A stretch of 64,000 nucleotides of DNA from a bacterium (lineage in GTDB: Bacteria; Fibrobacterota; Fibrobacteria; UBA11236): positions 14,788 through 78,787 of the forward strand of contig OMJM01000031.1 of NCBI GenBank assembly GCA_900299345.1, written 5' to 3'. Positions 3,025 through 58,458 of this stretch are shown here, one piece after another (within the stretch, counting starts at the first letter, position 1; every line of letters begins with the position of its first letter). The notes under the pieces were generated by a model. The model worked only from the letters and a program-made list of their open reading frames with translations, was not told the DNA's origin and made no database searches. The position numbers and the translations under genes were made by a program.

Positions 3025-3141
3025 CCGAAAATCCGCAATCAATCTGTAACTGTTCGAATATTTCGAATGGTTTTTTGAGAATCTTGTGGCCGTTATCGCC
3101 GGGATGCGTCATATTTGGGGCATACATACGGAGGTGGCCTT

Positions 3142-4611
3142 ATGAGAAGCATCTTCCTGTTTGTTGTCGCGTCAACGTTCATTCTGTCCAACGCCGCCAC
3201 TATCGGTGGCATTGTCGGTGCCCCAGCGCCCGGAACTCCGGTTGCTGGGGTAAAAGTTGTTCTCATCGACGGTAACAGCAGTGGTCCCCGCATCGACTCA
3301 ACCGTCAGCGACACTTTAGGTCAATACACTTTTTCAAACGTATCCACAGGTGCAAAGACAATACAAGCGGATAAATCCGGCTACAACAAAACTACGGTGC
3401 TAATATCCATCAATACTACGGGACAAGCGCTCATCCAAAACCTCAACATCACCATTAACAACAAAACATCCTCTTTTGTGGGGGTTGTTCGCCGTGCTTC
3501 AGATTCAACTCTGGTGGCTGGAGCCACGATAACCTTGACCGGCAATGCGGAAACCGGACGAAGCGTCACTACGGCTGCAAACGGCAGTTACCGGTTCGAC
3601 AGCGTGGGAACAGGGACGGGTTATACCGTAACCACTACGTTGACGGGCTACAACAATACCAGTGTGGGCGGCATTACCGCCACATGGAATGCAACTACGA
3701 CTATCGGCACGATGTACTTGACCCGCAATCTGGGTTCACTGTCGGGAATCATCCGACGTACCGACAGCACAACGATCCCGATTTCCGGGGCCAAGGTGGT
3801 TGTATTGCTCGGTTCCACGAAAGTGGACAGCGCCACTACAAACACGAACGGTCTGTACACTTTGATCCTGAACGCAGGAACTTACAACGTTCGAGTCAGC
3901 AAATCCGGGTTCAAAAGCAACCGCGGATTCCCGACTCGTGACACGACGAGTACGGTGATATTCAACAGCACGGTTACATTGAACATGAACCTCACTCCTG
4001 CCGCTTCCACAATTACGGGAACAATTACGAGCCGCAACACTACGAATACGGTGAGCGGTGCAAAAATCGTCTTACAGCGTCGCATGGGAAGCAATCCCGC
4101 TCCTGCCGGCAACAATACATGGTACAACCTCGATTCAACGGTCACCGGCGCCAATGGCGTTTATACTTTCACAAACCTGATTGCTGCGGGCCCCAATCCC
4201 GCTACTGCTGGGCAGTATCGGGTACTTGTCTCTTCGACTTCTGTTGCTTTCGTGTCATATCCCAATGGCACAACAGAAACCAATACCGACACGATGACCG
4301 TTGCCATCGGTGGAACGCGGATATTCGACGTGTCCGTGTGCCTCGGATTCGTCACTCCTGAGAACCCTAACCCCTGCCCTTCAGGAATACTGCCTAAAAG
4401 CATGGGGCAAGACTCCCGAAATATTCGCTTGATGCCTTACGGCAATAACTTGATCTTGAGCGTGAATCCTTCCACTTATTCTTATCAAATCTCCATCGTC
4501 GACCTGACCGGCGTCCAACGTCATACCGTCAACATCCCCGCCGGTGAAACACAGGCAGTGGTTCCGGCGATGTTCGCGCCGGAGAACGGGTATTTGCTTC
4601 TGCTGAAGTAG
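3142..4611 (+). CDS. secreted protein with repeated carboxypeptidase-regulatory-like (CarboxypepD_reg) beta-sandwich domains and T9SS-type C-terminal sorting domain
   Basis: GGAGGTG RBS 6 nt upstream of ATG 3142; signal peptide MRSIFLFVVASTFILSNAA; >=4 repeats of pattern ..G.KVVL.....TD..G.YtF..v..G.Y.v...; C-terminus NNLILSVNPSTYSYQISIVDLTGVQRHTVNIPAGETQ..LLLLK resembles Por-secretion tail. Confidence 0.65.
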   Translation: MRSIFLFVVASTFILSNAATIGGIVGAPAPGTPVAGVKVVLIDGNSSGPRIDSTVSDTLGQYTFSNVSTGAKTIQADKSGYNKTTVLISINTTGQALIQNLNITINNKTSSFVGVVRRASDSTLVAGATITLTGNAETGRSVTTAANGSYRFDSVGTGTGYTVTTTLTGYNNTSVGGITATWNATTTIGTMYLTRNLGSLSGIIRRTDSTTIPISGAKVVVLLGSTKVDSATTNTNGLYTLILNAGTYNVRVSKSGFKSNRGFPTRDTTSTVIFNSTVTLNMNLTPAASTITGTITSRNTTNTVSGAKIVLQRRMGSNPAPAGNNTWYNLDSTVTGANGVYTFTNLIAAGPNPATAGQYRVLVSSTSVAFVSYPNGTTETNTDTMTVAIGGTRIFDVSVCLGFVTPENPNPCPSGILPKSMGQDSRNIRLMPYGNNLILSVNPSTYSYQISIVDLTGVQRHTVNIPAGETQAVVPAMFAPENGYLLLLK

Positions 4612-4672: not shown

Positions 4673-5803
4673 CTACTTCGACATCGCCCAATCGGGCATG
4701 CGCAAAATCTCTCCGCCCTTCAGGGCCGAATCGTGTGCCAAGATTCCCGTGCAGGTGATATTGGCCGACTGCACCGCATTCGGGAACGGCTGGCGGTCTT
4801 TCGCCAGTGCATCCAGGAACTCATGGCACAGATGGGGATGTGAACCACCGTGGCCGCCACCTTGGGCGAAGGACAGATGGGAATGTTCATCGTCGTACAC
4901 GCCCTTGGTGGTGAAACCTTGGATCTCCGCAGGCAGACGATGCGCAAAGTCGGGGCACACCACCTTCGAGGGAATCTCCGGCTCCGGCTTCTTGGCGGTA
5001 TGCACCACCAGCGGTTCGTTCTCGACCAGCGGCCATTCCACACCCTGCTTGTCACCGTACACGTCAATGCTCTCGCGGTACTGGCGCGCCACGTCGAACA
5101 GCGAGCGAATCACGCGTGCCGAAAGATCCGAATTGCGGAACTTCAGGTGCGCAGTCTCCACCGCGAAAGGCGACTTGTAAATGGGGATCATTTCCGCGCG
5201 GATGGTGCCCGATCCGAAGCAGGATACGAATTCCACGTCTGCGCCAGCGAGGCCGACCATGGGGCCGACGCAGTGCGTCGCGTACCACATTGGCGGCAGG
5301 CCGGGCCAGTATCCGGGCCATCCGTCCATGTCCTGCTGATGGCTGGCCTGCAGATATTGCAGCTTGCCCAGTTCGCCTTTGTCCAGTTTTTCCTTCATGT
5401 ACAGATACTCGCGGGAATACACGACGGTTTCCATCATCATGTATTTCAAACCGGTCTGCTTCACGAGATCCACAATCTGCTTGCACTCGTCGAGACTCGT
5501 CGCCATGGGCACGGTGCAGGCTACATTCTTGCCAGCCTTCAACGCCTTGATCGACATCCAGCCGTGATCGGGAATGGGACTGTTGATATGCACGAAGTCC
5601 ACATTCGGATCCTTCAGCACGTCATCGAAGTTTGCATAGCGTTTTTCCACACCGAAGGCGTCCGCAATTTCCTTCATCTTCGCTTCATTGCGTTGGCACA
5701 CGGCGTACATGTTGGCAAGGGGATGACGCTTGTAAATCGGAATGAACTCGGCACCGAAACCGAGTCCTACGATGGCGACGTTGTATTTCTTCTGCTGGGC
5801 CAT
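4673..5803 (-). CDS. Gfo/Idh/MocA family NAD(P)-dependent oxidoreductase
   Basis: N-terminal Rossmann motif KYNVAIVGLGFGAEF, EKP-like region, typical length 376 aa; family-level call only. Confidence 0.85.
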   Translation of the reverse strand: MAQQKKYNVAIVGLGFGAEFIPIYKRHPLANMYAVCQRNEAKMKEIADAFGVEKRYANFDDVLKDPNVDFVHINSPIPDHGWMSIKALKAGKNVACTVPMATSLDECKQIVDLVKQTGLKYMMMETVVYSREYLYMKEKLDKGELGKLQYLQASHQQDMDGWPGYWPGLPPMWYATHCVGPMVGLAGADVEFVSCFGSGTIRAEMIPIYKSPFAVETAHLKFRNSDLSARVIRSLFDVARQYRESIDVYGDKQGVEWPLVENEPLVVHTAKKPEPEIPSKVVCPDFAHRLPAEIQGFTTKGVYDDEHSHLSFAQGGGHGGSHPHLCHEFLDALAKDRQPFPNAVQSANITCTGILAHDSALKGGEILRMPDWAMSK

Positions 5804-6086
5804 AAAGGCGTTCCTTCCGATCTGGTAGTTTGGGGAAGTCTAAGCTGCTTTTTTACCCGAAATTCGTCAATTTTTAATTGAATCGGAAGCAAAACATGTC
5901 AAAAATATCCTAGAAATACGCGCCCCACTGAAAAATTCAAGAACGATAATCTACCAAAGCCCTCATTCAGCGAAATTCGCCAAGCGTGCTGGCGAAAAAC
6001 GTATTATATTCCCTTCACTTGACACCCTCCTTGCCAGCAAGGAACTACAAGTTTTGAATCACAGACGCAATCACGGGGGAGATCCA

Positions 6087-8390
6087 ATGCCGAGAAATTA
6101 TCACATGTTCAAAGTTTTAAGCCTTTCGCTGGTCGGACTTTTCGGGGCCGTCATGGCGACACCTCCTGTTCTTAAAACTGGAGCCTGCCCGACCTTCACG
6201 CGCAGTGCTCCAGCTTCTGGCGACAACTGGGGCCAGTTTCCTATCAAGCCGACAACTGCGTTCGTCACAGCCAACTGCTCTGGTGCAGCCTGTACGCAGC
6301 AAGATCCCCTCCCGACCAATCAATCGATCAACTGCATTCAGGTTCCCTCCGGTTTGAGAGCAGAACTGGTTGCTTCCGAGTTGACCCCGGGTCCCGCGCC
6401 CAGCTTGGGATACCTGATGTATATCTCTTTTGACGAGCGTGGCCGCGTCTGGGCCGCGGAGCCCCGCGATTACCCGGCCATTGCCAACGATCCGAATCCG
6501 ACCAACCGCATCACCGGCGGCAAGGGCCGCATCCTGATTCTTGAGGACACCGATGGCGACGGCTCTCTGGACAATTACAAGGTGTTCTATGACGGCCTCG
6601 TCATGCCCACCAGCCTTGAAGTCGTGAACGGCGGCGTTATTGCCACCGTCGAACCACTCGTGGTTTTCCTCCCAAAGAGCACGACCAATCCGGACACTGC
6701 AGGTGCGCCGATCACCTTGTTCTCCGGTATGGGCAGCACGGGCAATACTTGGGACACCCATGGTGGAACCAACAGCATTACTTCCGGACTCGACAACTGG
6801 TACTACGGCCACCTCGGGTATAACGGCGGGTGCAGCGTCAACGGTGTGACCTGCGCCACGGGCGGTGTCTGGCGCTTCCGACACACGGCCATCGGCAGCC
6901 TGACAACAACGTTCCAGGCCTTTTCCACCAGCGGCCCCGCAAATGCCCACGGCGTGGGTCAGATGGAAGATGGACAAATCTTCCAGTCCGGCGCCACCGG
7001 AACTCCGCATAACAACCACGCCATCCGCCGTGGCGTTGCAGCGGTGAACATTCAAGTCAACGGCACCTACTATCCCATCACCGGCGACCGGTATCTCTGG
7101 GAAGGCTCGACGGGTATGACGAATGGTCAGTTCACTTCGAATACCACTGCTTCTTCAGGCCACGATTTCTACACCGCACGCCTGCTGCCTCAGAAGTACT
7201 GGAACACCCGTTCCTTCGTATGTGAAGGTGCCAGCAAGTTGTGCAACCAGGACAGCATGGTGATCAATGGAAGCACTTGGACCGCCGCGCGCATGCCGGG
7301 CCCGGTTACCTCCAACATTTTTGCTTCCTCCGACGCATGGGTCGCTCCGATCAAAGTGCGCACCGGACCTGATGGCGGCCTCTGGGTTGTGGACTGGCAC
7401 AACTACCTGTTCCTTCACAACCCTGCCACGCCTGCGACCAATGCGGCGTGGAACAACGCGCTGCGTACCAAGACGCGCACCCGCCTGTATCGCATCGTTC
7501 CGGATGACGGCCATACCGATCCCGTCCTGAACCTGTCCAACGCCACCACGGCGCAGTTGGTGGCCACGTTGTATCACTCCAACTTCGTGTGGCGTATGCA
7601 GGCCCAACGTCTGTTGATCGGAAAGGGCTACACCGCCGAACTGGGCGATTCTTTGCAAAGCATCCTGACCAACCACAAGACCGTGGATGCGGTCGGCATT
7701 GATGGTGCCGTCATTCACGCAATTTGGACGTTGGAAGGCCTGAACCGTTTTGTTGTGGATTCCACCCGTTGGGCTCCCATTCTGAAAAGCCTTCTCCTCC
7801 ACCCTGCATGGGGTGTTCGTGAGAACGTGTTGAAGGCGATGCCTAGAACTGCAACATCGGCACAGGCCATCAGCGATCAGTGCGCAGCAGATGATCCTCA
7901 TGCCCATGTCCGTTTGCAGGCCTATGTCGCCTTGGCTGAAAGCCCTGCCGCCACATCCGGAGCCGTGCAAGGCCATTATCGTGCCACTGATACCTACTCC
8001 TCTTCAGCTTTCGATGCGGCAGGAGCATCCAAACTGGCTGCTGCCACGCCGGCCAATACGCGGCCTACAAGCTGCCCCGACATCCAATCGACTGTCGCGC
8101 TCAGTCACGGTTCGGATCTAAAGAACACACAAATGGCCAACCCAATGCGCTTTACCATGACGCGTAACGGCTTTGAATTGGATCATCCTTATGGTAAGCT
8201 GTCTTCTGGCGATTTGGTGGTGTATGACATCACCGGTAAGGCGGCTTTCCGCTCCAGCTACAACTCCGCCACAGAGGCGTGGTCGACGACCACTGCGAAG
8301 GGTCTGAACATGTCCGTTTACTTCTATTCGTTCCATGGAACGAATGGGGACAAGTTCGAAGGACGCCTGCTCACAAATCAAGAATTCTGA
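6087..8390 (+). CDS. secreted beta-propeller ('membrane-bound dehydrogenase domain'-like) protein with C-terminal HEAT-like repeats and T9SS-type C-terminal domain; paralog A
   Basis: GGGGGAG RBS before ATG 6087; signal peptide MFKVLSLSLVGLFGAVMA; motif GRILILEDTDGDGSLDNYKVFYDGLVMPTSL matches the DTDGDG block of TIGR02604-type propellers; HEAT-like helices (..AIWTLEGL..LLLHPAWGVRENVLKAM..HAHVRLQAYVALAE); C-terminal ..LVVYDITGKAAFRS..MSVYFYSF.. tail. Confidence 0.65.
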   Translation: MPRNYHMFKVLSLSLVGLFGAVMATPPVLKTGACPTFTRSAPASGDNWGQFPIKPTTAFVTANCSGAACTQQDPLPTNQSINCIQVPSGLRAELVASELTPGPAPSLGYLMYISFDERGRVWAAEPRDYPAIANDPNPTNRITGGKGRILILEDTDGDGSLDNYKVFYDGLVMPTSLEVVNGGVIATVEPLVVFLPKSTTNPDTAGAPITLFSGMGSTGNTWDTHGGTNSITSGLDNWYYGHLGYNGGCSVNGVTCATGGVWRFRHTAIGSLTTTFQAFSTSGPANAHGVGQMEDGQIFQSGATGTPHNNHAIRRGVAAVNIQVNGTYYPITGDRYLWEGSTGMTNGQFTSNTTASSGHDFYTARLLPQKYWNTRSFVCEGASKLCNQDSMVINGSTWTAARMPGPVTSNIFASSDAWVAPIKVRTGPDGGLWVVDWHNYLFLHNPATPATNAAWNNALRTKTRTRLYRIVPDDGHTDPVLNLSNATTAQLVATLYHSNFVWRMQAQRLLIGKGYTAELGDSLQSILTNHKTVDAVGIDGAVIHAIWTLEGLNRFVVDSTRWAPILKSLLLHPAWGVRENVLKAMPRTATSAQAISDQCAADDPHAHVRLQAYVALAESPAATSGAVQGHYRATDTYSSSAFDAAGASKLAAATPANTRPTSCPDIQSTVALSHGSDLKNTQMANPMRFTMTRNGFELDHPYGKLSSGDLVVYDITGKAAFRSSYNSATEAWSTTTAKGLNMSVYFYSFHGTNGDKFEGRLLTNQEF

Positions 8391-8413
8391 GACCCCACTT
8401 TTCCTAAGAAAAA

Positions 8414-8448
8414 GGCCTTCGGGGATTCCCCGGAGGCTTTTTTCTTTG
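8414..8448 (+). terminator. rho-independent terminator after paralog A
   Basis: 11-bp stem GCCTTCGGGGA/TCCCCGGAGGC (one G-U pair) with 1-nt loop followed by TTTTTTCTTTG. Confidence 0.65.
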
Positions 8449-8617
8449 ATAACGGAAAATTCAGGATTTCGAAGGTACTTGTAGAATTCTACCCCAAAAA
8501 CCATCACCCGACCTTATATTTGAAGGGCTCGGTTATCCTCCATCTACGTTTTTGGCCGCGATAATCAAGATTATTCCGAAAATTCGGGAAACAAAAATTT
8601 CTAAGGAGAGGGTGAAC

Positions 8618-11056
8618 ATGACTAAGACGATTTTTACGAAATGTTTGGCTGCAGCCTTGATGCTGTTTGCGGTGGCTTCAAGCCAGCCCATCGGCAAAAC
8701 CGGCGCGTGTCCGACTTTAACACGCAGCAATTCCTACATGGGAATCAACCTGGTTAACGGCACGCCGTCAGGCGAGGCGTACGCGTTTACCGGCAAAAGC
8801 TGGCAGGTGACCCCTCGCTCCTGGCAGACCTCTGCGGGACAGATTCAAGACCCCCTGACGCCTGCGCAGTCCGTGAATTGCGTTCAGGTACCTACCGGTC
8901 TGAAGGCGGAAATCATCGCCTCGGAATTGACGCCCGGCAATGGCGCTCCCATGGCCTATCCCATGAATTTCACCTTTGACGAACGCGGCCGCATGTGGGT
9001 TATTGAACCTCGGGATTATCCCTTCATCCATGACACGACCACAGGTTTTCCGACAAACACCTCGAACGGTATTGCTTCGAACCGTCTTGCGGGCAAGGGC
9101 CGCATCCTGATTTTCGAAGACGTCAACGGCGACGGTGCCATGGACAACTTCAAAGTGTTTTACACCGGCTTGGCGATGCCCACCAGCATTGAACTCGTAA
9201 AGAATGGTGTGATCGTCACGGTGCCCCCCAACATCTATATCATTCCCAACGCCAACGACGTGGCCGGTACACCGCAAATCGTCGTCTCGGGCATGGGATC
9301 CAGCAGCAACAACTACGATGCCCATGGTCAGACTAACAGCCTGACCTATGGTCTCGACAACTACGTCTATGGTCACGTGGGCTACAACGGTTGCGGTTCG
9401 CCCGTGGTCGGCTCGAACCCTGGGGTGACCTGCGGTGGCGGTAACATCTGGCGCTTCAAAGCCACCGCGATCGGATCCGATACCAATCAATTCCAGATCG
9501 TTTCCAACAATGGTCCCTCCAACTCCCACGGCATCGGCCAGATGGAAGATGGTCAATGGTTCAAATCCGGCGCCACCCTCTCCTCCCACTCCAACCATCA
9601 GGTTCGCTTCGGTCAGGGCGCCAATGACATCCGTACTTCCACGGGCAGTGGCACGACGGGTACCAATCGCTTCTTCTCTATGACTTCGGACCGCTGGCTG
9701 TGGGAAGGCAACAATGACAGTTTGAGTGGCGGCACATTTGCTCCGGGCGGCTATTTCTCCACGCAGACATCTGCTGTTTCGGGTCACGATTTCTACACCG
9801 CGCGACTCCTGCCGCAACAATACTGGAACCGCTTCGGGTTCGCTTGCGAGGGTGCCAGCGGCCTTTGCAATGAAGACAGTCTTTCAGAAAACGGAAGCAC
9901 TTGGCGGGCCAATCGTATGCTGCCGCCGGGACGCAATCCGAATATCTTCGCCTCCACGGACGCTTGGACTGCACCCCTCAAAGTCCGGACCGGCCCGGAT
10001 GGCGCCCTATATGTGTTGGACTGGTACAACTACCTGTTCCTTCACAACCCTGCGACTCCGGCCACGGATGCCGCTTGGCGTAACCCGCTGCGCGCCAAAT
10101 CCCGCGCCCGGTTCTATCGCATTTTGCCTGCGGATGGTCACACGGACGTGCTACTCAACCTGACGAATGCCACACCGGCTCAGCTCGTGTCTGTTTTCTG
10201 GAGCAGCAATTTCACGTGGCGTTTGATGGCCCAACGTCAGCTTTTGTGGAGGAATTACACCACAGTCGAAAAGGATTCCCTCCTCACGTTGCTTGAAAAC
10301 GTCCTTACTCAACATCGTTATCCTGACACGGTTGGAATCGATGGACCGGTGCTTCACTCCCTCTGGACCTTGCATGGTATGGGCGAATTCAAAACAAACC
10401 CCAACCGTTGGAATCCCATCCTGAAAAACCTGCTGTTACATCCGGCTTGGAGCGTGCGCCGCAACGTGGCGCTTGCCATGCCCCGCACGGCTGCTTCGGC
10501 TCAGGCCATCGTGGATCAATGCGCGGTCAACGATACGCATGCTCATGTGCGCGTGCAGATGCTGGATGCGCTGGCCGCCATGCCGGCACCGAGCGCACCC
10601 GCTCAAATGGTCGCGACCTACCATAATACAGACACCTATTCCACCGGAGCATTTACCAGCGCCGGCGCCAGCAAGGTTGTGGAAATCACCGGCACCACAC
10701 GCCCCACGTCTTGCGCCTCTTATACGGCTCTTAGTGCCCCCGATGCCGCCAAGCCCAATGTGCCGTCTGTGGGTGTCCGCTCAACCGGATCCCTCGAAGC
10801 CCGTAATCATTTGCGCTTCAGCTTGACCCACAATGGTTTCGAGCTCCAAACGCAGCACGGACAACTGCCCTCGGGTGAATTGGTGGTGTATGATCTGCGC
10901 GGCAGCGTGGCATTCCGCTCCACCTACAACTCAGCAACGGGTACTTGGTCCCAGAAGACCGCTTCGGGCCTGAACATGTCCGTCTATTTCTACTCCTTCC
11001 GCGGAGTGAATGGCGACAAGTTCGACGGACGCATTTTCACGAACGAGGAACTGTAA
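8618..11056 (+). CDS. secreted beta-propeller/HEAT-like protein with T9SS-type C-terminal domain; paralog B of 6087..8390
   Basis: GGAG RBS, ATG 8618; signal peptide MTKTIFTKCLAAALMLFAVASS; shares TGACPT, GKGRILIFEDVNGDGAMDNFKVFY, DWYNYLFLHNPATPAT, HEAT-like region and C-terminal ..LVVYDLRGSVAFRS..MSVYFYSF.. with paralog A. Confidence 0.65.
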   Translation: MTKTIFTKCLAAALMLFAVASSQPIGKTGACPTLTRSNSYMGINLVNGTPSGEAYAFTGKSWQVTPRSWQTSAGQIQDPLTPAQSVNCVQVPTGLKAEIIASELTPGNGAPMAYPMNFTFDERGRMWVIEPRDYPFIHDTTTGFPTNTSNGIASNRLAGKGRILIFEDVNGDGAMDNFKVFYTGLAMPTSIELVKNGVIVTVPPNIYIIPNANDVAGTPQIVVSGMGSSSNNYDAHGQTNSLTYGLDNYVYGHVGYNGCGSPVVGSNPGVTCGGGNIWRFKATAIGSDTNQFQIVSNNGPSNSHGIGQMEDGQWFKSGATLSSHSNHQVRFGQGANDIRTSTGSGTTGTNRFFSMTSDRWLWEGNNDSLSGGTFAPGGYFSTQTSAVSGHDFYTARLLPQQYWNRFGFACEGASGLCNEDSLSENGSTWRANRMLPPGRNPNIFASTDAWTAPLKVRTGPDGALYVLDWYNYLFLHNPATPATDAAWRNPLRAKSRARFYRILPADGHTDVLLNLTNATPAQLVSVFWSSNFTWRLMAQRQLLWRNYTTVEKDSLLTLLENVLTQHRYPDTVGIDGPVLHSLWTLHGMGEFKTNPNRWNPILKNLLLHPAWSVRRNVALAMPRTAASAQAIVDQCAVNDTHAHVRVQMLDALAAMPAPSAPAQMVATYHNTDTYSTGAFTSAGASKVVEITGTTRPTSCASYTALSAPDAAKPNVPSVGVRSTGSLEARNHLRFSLTHNGFELQTQHGQLPSGELVVYDLRGSVAFRSTYNSATGTWSQKTASGLNMSVYFYSFRGVNGDKFDGRIFTNEEL

Positions 11057-11077
11057 TCCCGAATCCCAGACTCTCAA

Positions 11078-11108
11078 AGCCTCCCGTGAAAGCGGGAGGC
11101 TTTTTTAT
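11078..11108 (+). terminator. rho-independent terminator after paralog B
   Basis: 9-bp stem AGCCTCCCG/CGGGAGGCT with 6-nt loop followed by TTTTTTATT. Confidence 0.7.
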
Positions 11109-11140
11109 TGGATGTATTTTTTGCCTTCAAGAGGACACAT

Positions 11141-33862: not shown

Positions 33863-35281
33863 ATGAACCCACTTTTACAACGTTCTTTGCTTAAAAAACT
33901 CGGGTTTGCAGCGGTTGGGGTCACGTTGGGCGTTTTGCTGCTCAACAGTTGCGACGACATCGGATATAGCCCTTACGCACCGGTCATCACCTACAAGAAG
34001 GTGGCCATTTCTGCCTTCAAAAACACGGCCATTCTTCCCGATTACGTGGTGGCTTCGGGTGACGGGGTGATCGACGGGTATTCCGTCAGCCCTGCCCTTC
34101 CGACGGGTCTGACATTGGATGCAAAAACCGGCACCATCTCGGGCACTCCTACCGCCGGAACCCCCTGTCAGAACTACGTCGTCTCCGCATCTGGCCCCAG
34201 TGGCCACGATACGTCAACCGTAACGATCTGTGTGAGTGACAGCGCGAACACCTATCGTGTCAACAAAGGCCCTTTCCCGCCCTTCATTACTTACAAACGG
34301 CTTTCGATTGAGGCCGTTAAAAACAAGACTATTCGTTCGGATACTGTGATCGATACTACTGGCGGCGCCATTACCAGTTATTCAGTTACTCCCGCACTGC
34401 CGGCGGGCCTGGCCTTGAACACCGCCAACGGCGTCATTTCCGGAAAACCCACCACCACGGATACTGCAGCGCGCCTCTACACGATTACCGCAACCGGCCC
34501 CAGTGGCACGGGTGACGCCCACATAGGAATTTGTATTGCCCCCGACAGCCTGCATCCTTGCGTTGCCGATGTGCGTCCGCCCTCCGTCTATTATAACGAA
34601 AGCTTCATCTGGACGACTCCTGGAGTGGCGCTTGTACCCGACAGCGCCAACTCGTTCGCAGGACGGATTACCAAGTTTACCGTGTCTCCCGCATTGCCGG
34701 CAGGCATCAGCCTGGATTCCGTCAAAGGCATCATTTCCGGAACCCCGACGGCTACTGTCACGGCGCGTGATTACCACGTTCTGGTGACCGGACCATTCGG
34801 CATTGACTCGTCACAAATCATCTATATCGCTGTTTTCGACAACAATATTCCGCAAGCCCTGTTGAAAAAAGGAAAGGCGCGTTTCAGCGGTGTTTGTTCC
34901 GGCTGTCACGGTCAATTAGGTTTGGGTGCACCGCCTGATGTTCATCCGGGTCGTGGCGCCACTCCGCCACTGGCGCATTCCGACTTCCTGATGGCCAATC
35001 GCCATCGTCCCATCCGCATCCAAATGATGGGACTTCCCAATGCCATCGACTCCTTCGCGCCCATTATCGTGGCCGGTGACACATATGATTCTCACATGCC
35101 CTCCGTCGGAGGAAATGATTCAGACATTGCCTCTGTACTGACCTTCGTCCGAGCCATGTTCAATGGAGCCACGGATTATATAAGCGTCAGTGAAGTGGCT
35201 CATGTCCGTGACAGCGTGGCCGCATTGGATTGTGATCGCGATGGCCAGCGTGACGGTTGCGGTATCGACACGACGCACTAG
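33863..35281 (+). CDS. lipoprotein with four He_PIG (putative Ig) repeats fused to a C-terminal mono-heme cytochrome c domain
   Basis: Lipobox LLLNSC; four repeats of ..Y(S/T)V(S/T)PALPaGL.LD...G.ISGTPT.. (He_PIG signature); single CSGCH heme-binding motif followed by HMPSV (possible Met ligand). Confidence 0.7.
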   Translation: MNPLLQRSLLKKLGFAAVGVTLGVLLLNSCDDIGYSPYAPVITYKKVAISAFKNTAILPDYVVASGDGVIDGYSVSPALPTGLTLDAKTGTISGTPTAGTPCQNYVVSASGPSGHDTSTVTICVSDSANTYRVNKGPFPPFITYKRLSIEAVKNKTIRSDTVIDTTGGAITSYSVTPALPAGLALNTANGVISGKPTTTDTAARLYTITATGPSGTGDAHIGICIAPDSLHPCVADVRPPSVYYNESFIWTTPGVALVPDSANSFAGRITKFTVSPALPAGISLDSVKGIISGTPTATVTARDYHVLVTGPFGIDSSQIIYIAVFDNNIPQALLKKGKARFSGVCSGCHGQLGLGAPPDVHPGRGATPPLAHSDFLMANRHRPIRIQMMGLPNAIDSFAPIIVAGDTYDSHMPSVGGNDSDIASVLTFVRAMFNGATDYISVSEVAHVRDSVAALDCDRDGQRDGCGIDTTH

Positions 35282-55743: not shown

Positions 55744-57156
55744 TTAAATGGCCACCTGAACGCGTAGCACGTAATACCAGGAGTCCTTCTGCAACATGAC
55801 ATCACCGTAGGACCTGTCAAAACGATTGGTAAACAACTGCATGATTTGCATGTGGTCACTGGATGCCTTGGCGGTGACGGAAAGTGATTTCCATAAGGAT
55901 TTAGTCGCAGTAACCGACCATCTAAAATCATCGCCGTCCACGGCGTCGCGAGCGGATAGGCCGAGGTTCGTATTCCCATCCAAATACGGAGCTGCCACGG
56001 GACCGGTGGTGCTATTCGCCACTTTGAAATCCGAATTCAGGTAGGGATTTTTCCAATATTCCCCTTCCACGCTCAACAGATCGAGCACGCCCCACGTCGG
56101 AATGTTCAATCCCAGCATGATCGGCATCCTCTCCATGGGTTTATCGTAGAATACGGGATAATTTTGCACTCCCAACATCGCCCATTCGCCGTAAAGTTTC
56201 AAGTCGACGGCATTTCCGAAAATAGGCTTGAAGTCGATGGAAAAACGGGTCATCAGCATCTGCCCCTTCAGCGAATAATAACCCAAGCCAGAGACTCCTG
56301 AGGGAAGCGCCTTGCTCGTGTCGTTCAACACCTGATACACGGAGTCGGCGATGGCGGAATCGGCGCCCGAGTAGTAACCGGGAATGGTGGTGTATTTTTT
56401 TCCGTTGGAATAGGTAAAATACGCGTTCAACGGTTCATTTTTATTGGTCTCCAGCTCCGATTGAACGGGGATCAGGCGAAACAGGTTGACTCCAGCCCCA
56501 AATTCAAGAACAGAATTGATCCGATAGCTTGTGATATACGCCAGGCTGAAATCCCCCAGCGGGAAGCTGGCGTTGGAGCTTATCAAAAAGAGGTCGTTCT
56601 TCCATTTCCCCCCTGCGGCGGTCTTGCTCAAAATACCGCCTAAAATATTGGCGTGTGCCGCGTTGACGACGTCAAACGGCGAGTTCAAAACAGTATTGGG
56701 ATAGGGAGTGGAACGGAAAAGATATTCCCCCAAATCTTTGGAATCCGGATTGTATTTGTAAGGAAGGGCGCCAAAGGTGATCTCGAGAGCCGGAGCTTTC
56801 ACATCGCCCCACTTGTAGGAACCCGAAGCCTGAACCATTGATACGGCGGGGAAAAGCTCGTTTTGAAAGGGATATGGAAACGTACCGGAATTGTGGGGAA
56901 GGGAGAAAACCGTGGCCCCCAAACCAAAAGTCAAATCGGTTCTCTCATTCAGAGTCGCGCCCCCGAAAACCCAGCCGGTGGGCCTTATCATAAACATGGG
57001 GGCAAAGGATTCCGTTGGCACAGAACTGATCGGCGAAAAAGTCTGAAACTGCTCCAAGGCGACGCCAGCACTAACAGGATGCACCACCACATCTGCGGGC
57101 GCTGGCAATACCGCAAGGGATGCCAGACCCAAAATGGTACTCAGGGCTTTTTTCAT
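55744..57156 (-). CDS. putative outer-membrane beta-barrel protein, tandem paralog 2
   Basis: Signal peptide MKKALSTILGLASLAVLPAPA; alternating amphipathic strands; C-terminus SWYYVLRVQVAI shared with the upstream paralog; ATG immediately follows the upstream TAG. Confidence 0.5.
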   Translation of the reverse strand: MKKALSTILGLASLAVLPAPADVVVHPVSAGVALEQFQTFSPISSVPTESFAPMFMIRPTGWVFGGATLNERTDLTFGLGATVFSLPHNSGTFPYPFQNELFPAVSMVQASGSYKWGDVKAPALEITFGALPYKYNPDSKDLGEYLFRSTPYPNTVLNSPFDVVNAAHANILGGILSKTAAGGKWKNDLFLISSNASFPLGDFSLAYITSYRINSVLEFGAGVNLFRLIPVQSELETNKNEPLNAYFTYSNGKKYTTIPGYYSGADSAIADSVYQVLNDTSKALPSGVSGLGYYSLKGQMLMTRFSIDFKPIFGNAVDLKLYGEWAMLGVQNYPVFYDKPMERMPIMLGLNIPTWGVLDLLSVEGEYWKNPYLNSDFKVANSTTGPVAAPYLDGNTNLGLSARDAVDGDDFRWSVTATKSLWKSLSVTAKASSDHMQIMQLFTNRFDRSYGDVMLQKDSWYYVLRVQVAI

Positions 57157-58458
57157 CTAGATGGCCACCTGCACGCGGAGCACATAGTACCAGGAACCCT
57201 TGCGAGACATCACGTCGCCATAAGACTTCGAAGGAAAGCCGCCCACATTGAATTCCATCATTTGCAAATGATCATTTGCCGCCTTGGCGGTCAACGAAAT
57301 TGTTTTGGCCAAAGAGCGGGTGGCCGAAACTGACCATCTCAAATCATCATCTTTCACAGCATCCGTCGGCTTCAAATCCAGCTGCTTGTAAGAGTTGGTA
57401 TAATCCAAGTTCGGCGTTCCAGAACCATTATTGATAATGCCCAGTGTGGAATTCAGATAGGGATTCTTCCAATATTCCATTTCCACGTTCAGCATGTCGA
57501 GCACCCCCCAGGTGGGGATGTTCAATCCAACCATCACGGGCAGCCTGTCCATCATCTTGTCGTAATAACGGGGAAAATTCTGGACGCCCAGCAGGGTTCC
57601 CTCCCCGTAGAGCTTCAGGTCTGTTCCAAGAACAGGCTTGAAGTCGAGAGAAAACCTCGCCATTATCATCTGCCCTTTCAGCGAATAATAGCCCGAGCTG
57701 TCAGGATAGCGGTTGGTATCAGCCTTCCACGTGGTGATTGACGGCTGAACGGGTATCAGACGAAAAAGATTGACTCCGGCACCCAACTCCAAAATCGGAC
57801 TGATCCGATAACTGGTCACATAAGCCAGGCTGAAATCGTACAAGGGGCTGGATTGGGTGGCGCTGGTGATCAACAGATCATTTTTCCAGCTTCCCCCAAA
57901 CATGTTTTTGCTCAACATCAAGGCCAGGATATTCGCCTGGGCCGAATTGACCAGATCGAAAGGTGAATTCAACACGGTGTTGGGATAGGGCGTGGAACGG
58001 AATAGGTATTCGCCCAGATTCTTTGCATCCGGATTGTACTTGTAGGGCATTTGCCCGAAGGTCAGCTTGAGCGCGGGCTCTTTCAAATCCCCCCACGTAT
58101 AGGAACCTGATGCCTGTACCAAGGCCACTGCCGGGAACAACTCAGTTTGGTAATTGGTGCTCCTCGGATATGAACCGCTGTCATGCGGCAGTGAAAAAGT
58201 GGTCGCTCCGATTCCCATGACGAGGGAGATTCTGTCGTTGATGGTGGCGCTTTCAAAAATCCACCCCGTGGGCCTCACCATGAGCAAGGGTTCGGCAGGA
58301 TGGGCCAAGTTCAAATAACTATTCGCATTGTAAAGCTGGAAAGCTTCCAGAGCCACTCCCGCATTCACGGGGTTTCGCACCACATCCGTCGAGGCGGCTG
58401 AAAACATGAGGAGCGGCAAACCGGAAAGGATCCACTTCATGCCAGACTTCATTTTCAC
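57157..58458 (-). CDS. putative outer-membrane beta-barrel protein, tandem paralog 1
   Basis: Signal peptide; collinear similarity to 55744..57156 (..RPTGW.F..AT.N.R..L..G.GAT.FSLPH.SG..P.. ; ..LFRSTPYPNTVLNSPFD.VN.A.ANIL..); same C-terminal SWYYVLRVQVAI. Confidence 0.5.
   Translation of the reverse strand: MKMKSGMKWILSGLPLLMFSAASTDVVRNPVNAGVALEAFQLYNANSYLNLAHPAEPLLMVRPTGWIFESATINDRISLVMGIGATTFSLPHDSGSYPRSTNYQTELFPAVALVQASGSYTWGDLKEPALKLTFGQMPYKYNPDAKNLGEYLFRSTPYPNTVLNSPFDLVNSAQANILALMLSKNMFGGSWKNDLLITSATQSSPLYDFSLAYVTSYRISPILELGAGVNLFRLIPVQPSITTWKADTNRYPDSSGYYSLKGQMIMARFSLDFKPVLGTDLKLYGEGTLLGVQNFPRYYDKMMDRLPVMVGLNIPTWGVLDMLNVEMEYWKNPYLNSTLGIINNGSGTPNLDYTNSYKQLDLKPTDAVKDDDLRWSVSATRSLAKTISLTAKAANDHLQMMEFNVGGFPSKSYGDVMSRKGSWYYVLRVQVAI

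Follow-up and report, generated by a model that had tools for sequence, protein, structure and literature searches.

A tandem pair of cytochrome-less, secretion-tailed DUF7133 propeller proteins in Fibrobacterota, with a conserved Gfo/Idh/MocA partner and a putative redox function

Within a 64,000-nucleotide window of a Fibrobacterota contig (OMJM01000031.1, positions 14,788 to 78,787; coordinates below are those of the window, the whole stretch of DNA that was analysed), two tandem genes, here called A and B, encode propeller proteins of the large, uncharacterised DUF7133/TIGR02604 family. The two are anciently diverged paralogues and belong to a cytochrome-less, secretion-tailed Fibrobacterota branch of that family, the branch being one part of what is new. 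Relatives in other phyla carry one of two unrelated electron carriers behind the same core, and a Gfo/Idh/MocA oxidoreductase gene (GFO) is a conserved neighbour in two phyla. In the explanation proposed here, a Sec-type signal peptide would take A and B out of the cytoplasm, the propeller, which is of the soluble pyrroloquinoline quinone (PQQ) glucose dehydrogenase fold type, would oxidise a sugar-like substrate, and both proteins would act in one pathway with the adjoining cytoplasmic GFO enzyme. In Fibrobacterota the carrier domain would have been replaced by a tail resembling type IX secretion system (T9SS) sorting domains, so that A and B are probably exported to the cell surface and in need of a separate electron acceptor. 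Taken whole, with old paralogues, surface redox propellers, a GFO pathway, a near-identical 37-nt stretch held by constraint and tails that evolve in concert, this account is favoured with modest confidence. The features on which it draws are as follows.

4673-5803, minus strand: Gfo/Idh/MocA oxidoreductase gene (PF01408, E 1.4e-23), divergent from A, no signal peptide.
6054-8390, plus strand: open reading frame (ORF) of paralogue A, 778 aa from TTG; public gene calls start at ATG 6087 and give 767 aa (protein P0001).
6087-8390, plus strand: coding region of A by the public call, comprising signal peptide, Cys-containing N-terminal cap, DUF7133 propeller, HEAT-like helices, linker and C-terminal beta-sandwich tail.
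6177-6194, plus strand: TGACPT box of A, with a Cys, and an Arg five residues later, that are invariant in the family.
6318-7505, plus strand: beta-propeller domain of A (DUF7133/TIGR02604; PF23500 at residues 89-484).
7390-7426, plus strand: 37-nt stretch of A, which encodes (V)DWHNYLFLHNPA towards the end of the propeller.
7548-8021, plus strand: HEAT/ARM-like alpha-helical repeats of A (helices of the model, residues 482-639).
8145-8387, plus strand: C-terminal 7-stranded beta-sandwich tail of A, similar to a T9SS C-terminal domain (CTD), evolving in concert with the tail of B.
8552-11056, plus strand: ORF of paralogue B, 834 aa from TTG; public gene calls start at ATG 8618 and give 812 aa.
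8618-11056, plus strand: coding region of B by the public call, with the architecture of A.
10017-10053, plus strand: 37-nt stretch in B, encoding (L)DWYNYLFLHNPA.
10811-11053, plus strand: C-terminal beta-sandwich tail of B, which the tree places with the tails of the A clade and not with those of the whole-gene relatives of B.

Both proteins matched Pfam PF23500 (DUF7133) far above its cutoff of 27 bits, at 229.2 for A and 227.2 for B (E ~1e-67, profile positions 2-384/385), and NCBIfam TIGR02604 (Piru_Ver_Nterm) at 133.1 and 140.7 bits, respectively, against a curated cutoff of 122.2. A first-pass annotation, made from the sequence alone, had likened the pair to the planctomycete and verrucomicrobial 'membrane-bound dehydrogenase domain' proteins and had read in both a TGACPT box, a DTDGDG-type block and a C-terminal tail; the family assignment was borne out by these matches, and all three elements, with the block as EDTDGDG or EDVNGDG, were present in each protein. 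The TGACPT region forms part of the longer consensus KTGxCPTLTRY, in which C28 and R33 are invariant in the family alignment, and in a structural model of A the segment had a predicted local distance difference test (pLDDT) score of ~92. The same annotation had seen no CxxCH haem motif in either protein. A motif search agreed, the cytochrome family models of Pfam and NCBIfam gave no match to A or B, and CxxCH was absent from 26/26 Fibrobacterota copies examined (A, B and 24 others). The product name attached to TIGR02604 in NCBIfam is 'PVC-type heme-binding CxxCH protein' (PVC, Planctomycetes-Verrucomicrobia-Chlamydiae), and some close Fibrobacteria relatives (P0021 and P0059) carry it at NCBI, presumably because of their match to that model. 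For the Fibrobacterota clade the name is likely a systematic misnomer, a judgement based on the sequences of the 26 copies examined.

The two genes had been described as tandem paralogues of substantial divergence, and pairwise alignment gave 53% amino acid identity by BLASTP, or 56% amino acid and 59% nucleotide identity in a global codon alignment. Gene phylogeny placed A in a clade with L001_776, L001_774 and L003_781 from other loci (100% bootstrap over the body of the gene), with B outside that clade and its nearest relative, L086_800, at 63% identity. Because A and B fall in different old clades, the duplication appears to predate these lineages, and their sequences mark them as anciently diverged tandem paralogues. 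The gene order tyrS, propeller copies, yqeY, THUMP-like gene recurs in loci L001, L004 and L087; L086 starts in the same way on the tyrS side, and its contig ends after the propeller pair. The B sequence itself is identical to P0014, an 812-aa protein of a metagenome-assembled genome held at NCBI as 'Fibrobacteres bacterium'. Three further records (L009, L013 and L073; contigs CAZKRC01, CAZBIC01) are titled 'uncultured Bifidobacterium sp.' yet carry DUF7133 genes of Fibrobacterota or PVC type, so that their taxonomic label is almost certainly mistaken.

An AlphaFold model of A (pLDDT 84.8, predicted TM score 0.82) showed a propeller at residues ~84-466, helical repeats at residues 482-639 and then a disordered linker, so that the predicted order of a propeller followed by a HEAT-like region held in both the model and the fold search. 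When the helical segment of A was searched in isolation, HEAT_2 (E 6e-4) and HEAT (E 2e-3) were matched, both under the Pfam cutoff. Foldseek comparison with the PDB returned the six-bladed soluble PQQ glucose/aldose dehydrogenases 2ISM (E 2e-8), 3DAS and 8RE0 first, with E values of 2e-8 to 2e-7, probability 1.0 and target-normalised TM scores (TMt) of 0.49-0.63. The hedgehog-interacting protein (HHIP), lactonases and BtuG-type propellers followed below the sugar dehydrogenases.

The propellers of 24 Fibrobacterota genes, 45 cytochrome-bearing genes and 21 other cytochrome-less genes were aligned. The cytochrome-less Fibrobacterota copies and the cytochrome-bearing PVC copies have a polar core in common, made up of E109, the segment FDERGRxW, D165/D169/D173, the EDTDGDG loop, D234-x-H236, D247, R274, N297, H322, D427, D447 and R477/R480. 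What follows the core differs between groups. A C-terminal CxxCH lies ~800 residues downstream of the propeller motif in 44/59 complete PVC-type ORFs and in 0/26 Fibrobacterota ones; L036, for instance, ends in TIGR02603 (124.6 bits) and L029 in Cytochrom_C. In the Acidobacteriota loci L021, L025 and L026 the propeller lies within ThuA-DUF7133-HEAT fusions that end in a copper domain of plastocyanin/azurin type (cupredoxin), an architecture for which no description was found in the searchable literature. The best case to be made at present for a redox propeller is that two unrelated one-electron carriers stand at one position behind an unchanged core, and we infer that it acts on a sugar-like substrate outside the cytoplasm. 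A further family variant, P0109 (1059 aa), continues from the propeller into FlgD_ig, He_PIG and fn3 domains and is another case of C-terminal module swapping.

The gene adjoining A had been taken for a Gfo/Idh/MocA oxidoreductase, and its product scored 84.3 bits with PF01408 (cutoff 24) and only 21.4 for the C-terminal domain (cutoff 27). It reached no NCBIfam equivalog, the match being to the N-terminal Rossmann region only, and its best PDB match was glucose-fructose oxidoreductase over the N-terminal 160 aa only. The adjacency recurs in two phyla. A GFO homologue adjoins the propeller gene in 7/9 Acidobacteriota and 4/20 Fibrobacterota loci, and the window protein is 83% identical to its counterpart in L001 and 57.6% identical to the Acidobacteriota neighbours (L021). 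In L021, L024 and L026 the gene lies upstream and divergent, a layout as in the window, and in four others (L020, L022, L027, L028) it is the gene immediately downstream of the propeller. From this recurrence in sequence, the GFO enzyme is a conserved partner of the propeller genes across two phyla and not an incidental neighbour. No Sec or Tat signal was found in any GFO copy, each of which starts at the Rossmann fold; the enzyme is thus cytoplasmic, and its link to the exported propeller would be one through a pathway and not through physical contact.

Two further genes of the window are related to neighbours of the GFO gene in L001. These tandem paralogues, at 55744-57156 and 57157-58458 on the minus strand, have signal peptides but match no Pfam family; they share the ending ...SWYYVLRVQVAI and are homologous (E 1e-44 to 1e-56) to two genes that lie between the GFO and ThuA genes in L001. 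Judged by this homology, they may be outer-membrane proteins of the same functional module that moved ~47 kb away.

If the propeller is a dehydrogenase that has lost its carrier, an acceptor should exist elsewhere, and the first-pass annotation had pointed to a stand-alone cytochrome lipoprotein, which was found as described:

33863-35281, plus strand: He_PIG-cytochrome c lipoprotein with an LNSC lipobox, three He_PIG domains and, at the C-terminus, a mono-haem cytochrome c domain with the motif CSGCH.

No other window ORF of 150 aa or longer has a CxxCH motif. In L004 and L009 the gene immediately downstream of the propeller genes encodes a small cytochrome c lipoprotein, to which the haem domain of the 33863 protein is 43% identical. 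All three cytochromes are of the generic class I and not the TIGR02603 module, which they contact only near the haem motif (E 0.016-0.05), and a cytochrome adjoins the propeller genes in only 2 of ~17 Fibrobacterota loci. The idea that the family's cytochrome module split off as a separate gene (33863, or those of L004 and L009) was set aside as speculation for these two reasons. On its sequence, the 33863 protein is a possible electron acceptor of A and B, weakly linked to them. In L004 (1-8326) and L086 (1-4822) the tyrS-propeller pair adjoins a cbb3-type oxidase and multi-cytochrome c cluster, with FixO/COX1, FixS, DsbD_2 and several cytochrome c genes, which places the propeller genes of those two loci in a respiratory neighbourhood.

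The C-terminal ~80 residues of A and B, read earlier as a sorting tail, stood up as a structural unit. Seven strands at residues 683-756 follow the disordered linker in the full model of A, and a tail-only model gave seven strands with pLDDT >85. The two T9SS tail models, CHU_C (15.2 and 15.1 bits for A and B, E 0.024-0.025, cutoff 27) and Por_Secre_tail (13.8 and 13.7 bits, E 0.042-0.046, cutoff 23), were the top weak matches of both tails, and the remaining weak ones (DUF4886, Coa3_cc) differed between A and B. In Foldseek the T9SS substrate CTDs 8GL8_D and 8GL6_D ranked 5-6 (TMt 0.65-0.66, E 0.04-0.05) and had the highest target-normalised TM score among the fold matches. The tail ended 1-5 residues before the C-terminus in 27/27 proteins matched by a hidden Markov model (HMM) of it. 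T9SS-type tails have been proposed for Fibrobacter succinogenes enzymes (PMC6851124). T9SS export of A and B is likely; the sorting tail of the earlier claim is plausible, with all sorting-model scores below threshold. The notion of the tail as a tag common to unrelated cargo was rejected, the tail HMM being restricted to the family and hhalign comparison with neighbouring tails being weak. A ThuA neighbour in L001 matched Por_Secre_tail near threshold (E 2e-4). Among the ~26 ORFs of the 64-kb window that were scanned against Pfam, none was a T9SS component.

Several observations count against A and B being surface redox enzymes. Redox activity has been demonstrated for no family member, and the only biochemical report found on the family claims lactose hydrolysis by Lac161_ORF7 (PMC5342196). 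Sequence identity to the PQQ dehydrogenases of the fold search is 11-14%; a PDB sequence search with A alone or with a 26-sequence profile gave no match at E<=10; Pfam GSDH gave none in A or B at E<=0.1; and the likeness is one of overall fold. No cytochrome gene adjoins the pair, the 33863 gene lying 23 kb away, and with GFO cytoplasmic and A and B exported, coupling would be possible via a pathway only. The tail lies under every curated T9SS cutoff, its fold search had no match at E<=0.001, and the tail HMM matched DUF7133 proteins only, among 1,713 ORFs.

The last of these points would suit a different reading of the tail, by which A and B would stay in the periplasm and their C-terminal sandwich would serve as a family-specific immunoglobulin (Ig)-like module for binding or docking and not as a secretion signal. 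Besides the family restriction and the sub-cutoff T9SS scores, it is favoured by the weak result of profile comparison against tails of putative cargo encoded nearby and by the top structural match of the tail, a generic Ig-like DUF3244 domain followed by many FN3 domains. It accounts less well for the two T9SS models heading the list for both proteins, for the position of the tail at the extreme C-terminus in all 27 proteins, for the seven strands behind a disordered linker and for the TM scores of the T9SS substrate CTDs, and the concerted evolution of tails within genomes described below fits a tag matched to the host's own secretion machinery. We consider a periplasmic docking module doubtful, though it deserves to be kept in mind.

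A and B could also be non-redox carbohydrate-active surface enzymes, for example glycoside hydrolases like Lac161_ORF7, with carrier loss marking a change of chemistry. Purified Lac161_ORF7 (TIGR02604, HEAT_2 and cytochrome c) was reported to hydrolyse lactose with a Km of 1.8 mM (PMC5342196), and planctomycete homologues have been treated as an unclassified group of putative glycosidases (PMC5352709). Fibrobacterota specialise in polysaccharide degradation, T9SS-type tails are found on their surface enzymes, and A and B have no carrier domain. However, members with and without a carrier have the same polar core, an argument for a single chemistry, and the fusion of two unrelated one-electron carriers at the same position is hard to reconcile with hydrolysis. 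The report itself consists of one assay of released glucose with protein from E. coli BL21, and a 7TMR-DISM/GGDEF protein assayed alongside it had a comparable Km (PMC5342196). All three 'novel beta-galactosidases' described there came from BL21, with Km values of 1.8-3.2 mM against 2.0 mM quoted for E. coli LacZ (PMC5342196); carry-over of host LacZ seems not to have been excluded there. No CAZy family traceable to Lac161_ORF7 was found, and GH165, considered as a candidate, was rejected, being described as a five-bladed propeller that fits Lac161_ORF10 and not ORF7. A hydrolase is accordingly held to be improbable, and the beta-galactosidase assignment of Lac161_ORF7 deserves re-testing.

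A and B might instead have no enzymatic activity and serve at the surface as receptors or binding proteins, with the propeller as scaffold, as in HHIP or in BtuG, which binds vitamin B12; HHIP (3HO4, 7PGM) and BtuG-type lipoproteins (8OKV, 8BAI, 8P97) are among the fold matches. These matches are weaker than those to the sugar dehydrogenases, and the invariant Asp, His, Arg and Asn residues across phyla, together with the carriers fused in relatives, point to catalysis; such a role is very unlikely. The preferred reading of an extracytoplasmic redox propeller can also be extended to a fuller history, in which Fibrobacterota turned a periplasmic, carrier-fused respiratory dehydrogenase into a T9SS-displayed, carrier-less pair that oxidises extracellular carbohydrate and passes electrons to a surface cytochrome such as the 33863 protein, or performs non-redox glycan chemistry, with tails kept matched by gene conversion at the 3' ends. 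This longer scenario has little probability in our estimate; if true, with either chemistry, it would mean that fibre-degrading bacteria have a surface carbohydrate-active enzyme of a new class.

The tails bear a second signal. Within-genome pairs have tails more alike than their bodies predict (mean residual +0.077, label-permutation P=0.0006), the residual being positive in 9/9 same-contig pairs and +0.20 for A and B. Bootstrap support for the group {B, A, L001_776, L001_774} was 62-75% in the tail and 0% in the body. At 10970-11013, B has a 44-nt exact run in common with the tail of L001_776, a non-orthologous gene from another genome, and this run includes the non-preferred codons TAT, GGA and AAT. 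The tail of B also has in common with the A-clade genes a derived N-M-S-VYFY state, in place of the Pro of every other clade, as well as the rare codons TAT, GGA, GTG and AAT. With moderate rather than strong support, these sequence comparisons show the last ~80 residues evolving in concert within genomes, by conversion or by co-adaptation to the host's secretion machinery; conversion is plausible, and the rare codons common to the B and A-clade tails favour at least one old exchange.

The first-pass annotation had drawn attention to a 37-nt stretch with a single mismatch between A and B and had ascribed it to gene conversion or strong codon-level constraint. The sequence was exact, at 36/37 matches, and the location needed correction in A, where the stretch lies at 7390-7426 and not at ~7386 (B, 10017-10053). 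It encodes DW[H/Y]NYLFLHNPA in the last part of the propeller, and the mismatch is non-synonymous, giving His in A and Tyr in B. The motif DW[H/Y]NYLFLHNP is invariant in the clade, and in the propeller alignment its NYLFLHNP part is specific to the Fibrobacterota clade. Clade codons for the motif are almost uniform (GAC TGG TAC AAC TAC CTG/C TTC CTG/C CAC AAC CCN).

Two codon-aware null models were applied. With the protein alignment fixed and synonymous codons redrawn from each gene's own usage, at least 36/37 matches arose in 0.02% of simulations (P=0.0002), and when the observed codon pairs were shuffled among positions with the same residue, in 0.36% (P=0.0036). Both nulls are too liberal because invariant residues use position-specific preferred codons, and neither was retained as proof after a between-genome control. 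In this control, 26 family genes from 20 Fibrobacterota loci were compared in pairs from different genomes, for which conversion is impossible. At least 36/37 was reached somewhere in the gene by 9 of 193 pairs of similar divergence (4.7%) and by 8.8% of those in the 52-60% amino acid identity band, and the best 37-nt window fell on the DW[H/Y]NYLFLHNP motif in 31% of pairs. At exactly the site of the 37-mer, 2/317 between-genome pairs (0.6%) reached 36/37. The 37-mer is therefore at the upper tail of the family range and not outside it.

A very short conversion or template-switch patch of 28-37 nt between the tandem paralogues would agree with the low P values of both nulls and with the rarity of 36/37 at the exact site. 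Leu CTT, present in A and B and in 0/24 other genes at the site, is in its favour too, as is the larger share of within-genome pairs that reach at least 36/37 (2/6 against 9/193 between genomes, Fisher P=0.037), a comparison that same-genome codon usage confounds. The region is moreover the most similar part of A and B (81% nucleotide identity) and so the likeliest place for an exchange, and a tandem pair in L086 offers a precedent in a 41-nt exact run with a derived Glu. Set against these points, the stretch was chosen post hoc as the best in the gene, and the between-genome frequencies given above apply. CTT is the only synonymous state private to the pair, and the internal His/Tyr difference tracks orthology and was thus not homogenised. 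The five codons directly 3' of the 37-mer encode identical residues and differ at every third position, the two codons directly 5' also differ between A and B, and synonymous sites in the flanks are fully diverged. The A+B grouping over residues 420-470 received 0-7% bootstrap, although a tract of at most 37 nt leaves such a test little power. A conversion patch is thus unlikely here. Of the two causes proposed earlier, constraint is favoured by the between-genome control, and conversion is disfavoured by the diverged flanks and the clade-invariant motif; the parsimonious reading of the sequences is codon-level conservation of an invariant motif, mostly in family-preferred C-ending codons, and not a recent conversion tract.

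The L086 run belongs to a tandem pair at L086:7397-12403 (alignment columns 672-685, corresponding to ~7176-7220 of the window) and extends across RLLPEKYWNRFAF. It contains a Glu found in that pair alone and the rare Leu codon CTT, and is more likely than the 37-mer of the window to be a genuine short patch of conversion.

Outside the coding regions, the locus holds the following features.

5804-6086, no strand: AT-richer divergent intergenic region, 283 nt, GC 43.1% against ~57% in the flanking genes.
8414-8448, plus strand: intrinsic terminator of A, a hairpin (dG -32.9 kcal/mol) followed by a T-run.
11076-11103, plus strand: intrinsic terminator of B, a 12-bp stem with 7 GC pairs and a T-run (dG -24.3).

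The intergenic region, whose length and composition were as first described, presumably holds the promoters of the GFO gene and A; a scan of 5804-6086 found no sigma-70 consensus site, and an Rfam search of the intergenic regions gave no real family match. That each paralogue has its own strong terminator was likewise upheld, both being hairpins with T-runs. At 8432-8450 and 11095-11113 the terminators have GGAGGCTTTTTT(C/A)TT(T/G)GAT in common (17/19 nt). The common part GGAGGCTTTTTT consists of the 3' stem half and T-run, and the 5' stem halves are different, so that the likeness is no evidence of conversion running past the stop codon, a possibility that was rejected; it is probably convergence on a GC stem with a T-run and not shared descent. 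Between tyrS and the GFO gene, 3115-4611 on the plus strand encodes a secreted 498-aa protein with four CarboxypepD_reg-like repeats. Sorting-domain models had no match in its C-terminal 103 aa, and the gene is not at the equivalent position in L001, L004, L086 or L087.

Proteins with DUF7133/TIGR02604 domains are very abundant in Planctomycetota, Verrucomicrobiota, Acidobacteriota and Fibrobacterota, and the lone claim of beta-galactosidase activity conflicts with the domain logic of the family. An interchangeable module (cytochrome c, cupredoxin or secretion-type tail) follows a propeller-HEAT core that looks catalytic and stays constant, and in two phyla the cytochrome-less forms are accompanied by one particular cytoplasmic Gfo/Idh/MocA enzyme. 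Together, the swappable module, constant core and travelling GFO make the redox hypothesis directly testable and offer a compact two-gene module to express. The new elements are the cytochrome-less tailed Fibrobacterota branch, the oxidoreductase conserved as its partner and the argument, drawn from the carrier swaps, for a redox function. As the 37-mer illustrates, conversion should not be invoked for a striking near-identical stretch of two paralogues until gene pairs from different genomes have served as a control.

Among known systems, soluble glucose dehydrogenase and the aldose dehydrogenases Asd/Adh (2ISM, 3DAS, 8RE0), extracytoplasmic sugar oxidoreductases, are the best fold matches to the modelled propeller of A. 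Unlike these enzymes, A and B carry a HEAT region and a sorting-type tail, and a sequence relationship is undetectable. The tail itself resembles the CTDs of T9SS cargo (type A, TIGR04183/PF18962; type B, PF13585; RemA and RemZ in 8GL6 and 8GL8) in its ~80 aa and seven strands, its place at the extreme C-terminus after a linker and its 'vvYDlrG' and 'vYFY' motifs. It differs from them in its sub-cutoff scores and in a sequence type confined, in the loci examined, to the DUF7133 family. In the disaccharide 3-dehydrogenase system of the rhizobial thuEFGKAB operon, ThuB, a Gfo/Idh/MocA protein, pairs with a ThuA-domain protein, and both partner types recur around DUF7133 or fused to it. Unlike that system, the window pair has no ThuA gene nearby and a GFO that matches no defined equivalog, and ThuAB has no propeller. 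The PVC-type proteins that combine TIGR02604, HEAT and TIGR02603 or cytochrome c (Lac161_ORF7, AGW45552) have the propeller family, HEAT-like region and polar core of A and B at only 25-35% identity, whereas A and B lack CxxCH, a cytochrome module and ThuA and have the ~80-aa T9SS CTD-like tail in the place of the cytochrome. Nearest to A and B outside Fibrobacterota, at 31-34% identity, are the ThuA-DUF7133-HEAT-cupredoxin proteins of Vicinamibacterales and other Acidobacteriota. Unlike these fusions, A and B have neither an N-terminal ThuA nor a C-terminal copper domain; the fusions are also cytochrome-less, and the same Gfo/Idh/MocA subfamily adjoins them, often in the divergent layout.

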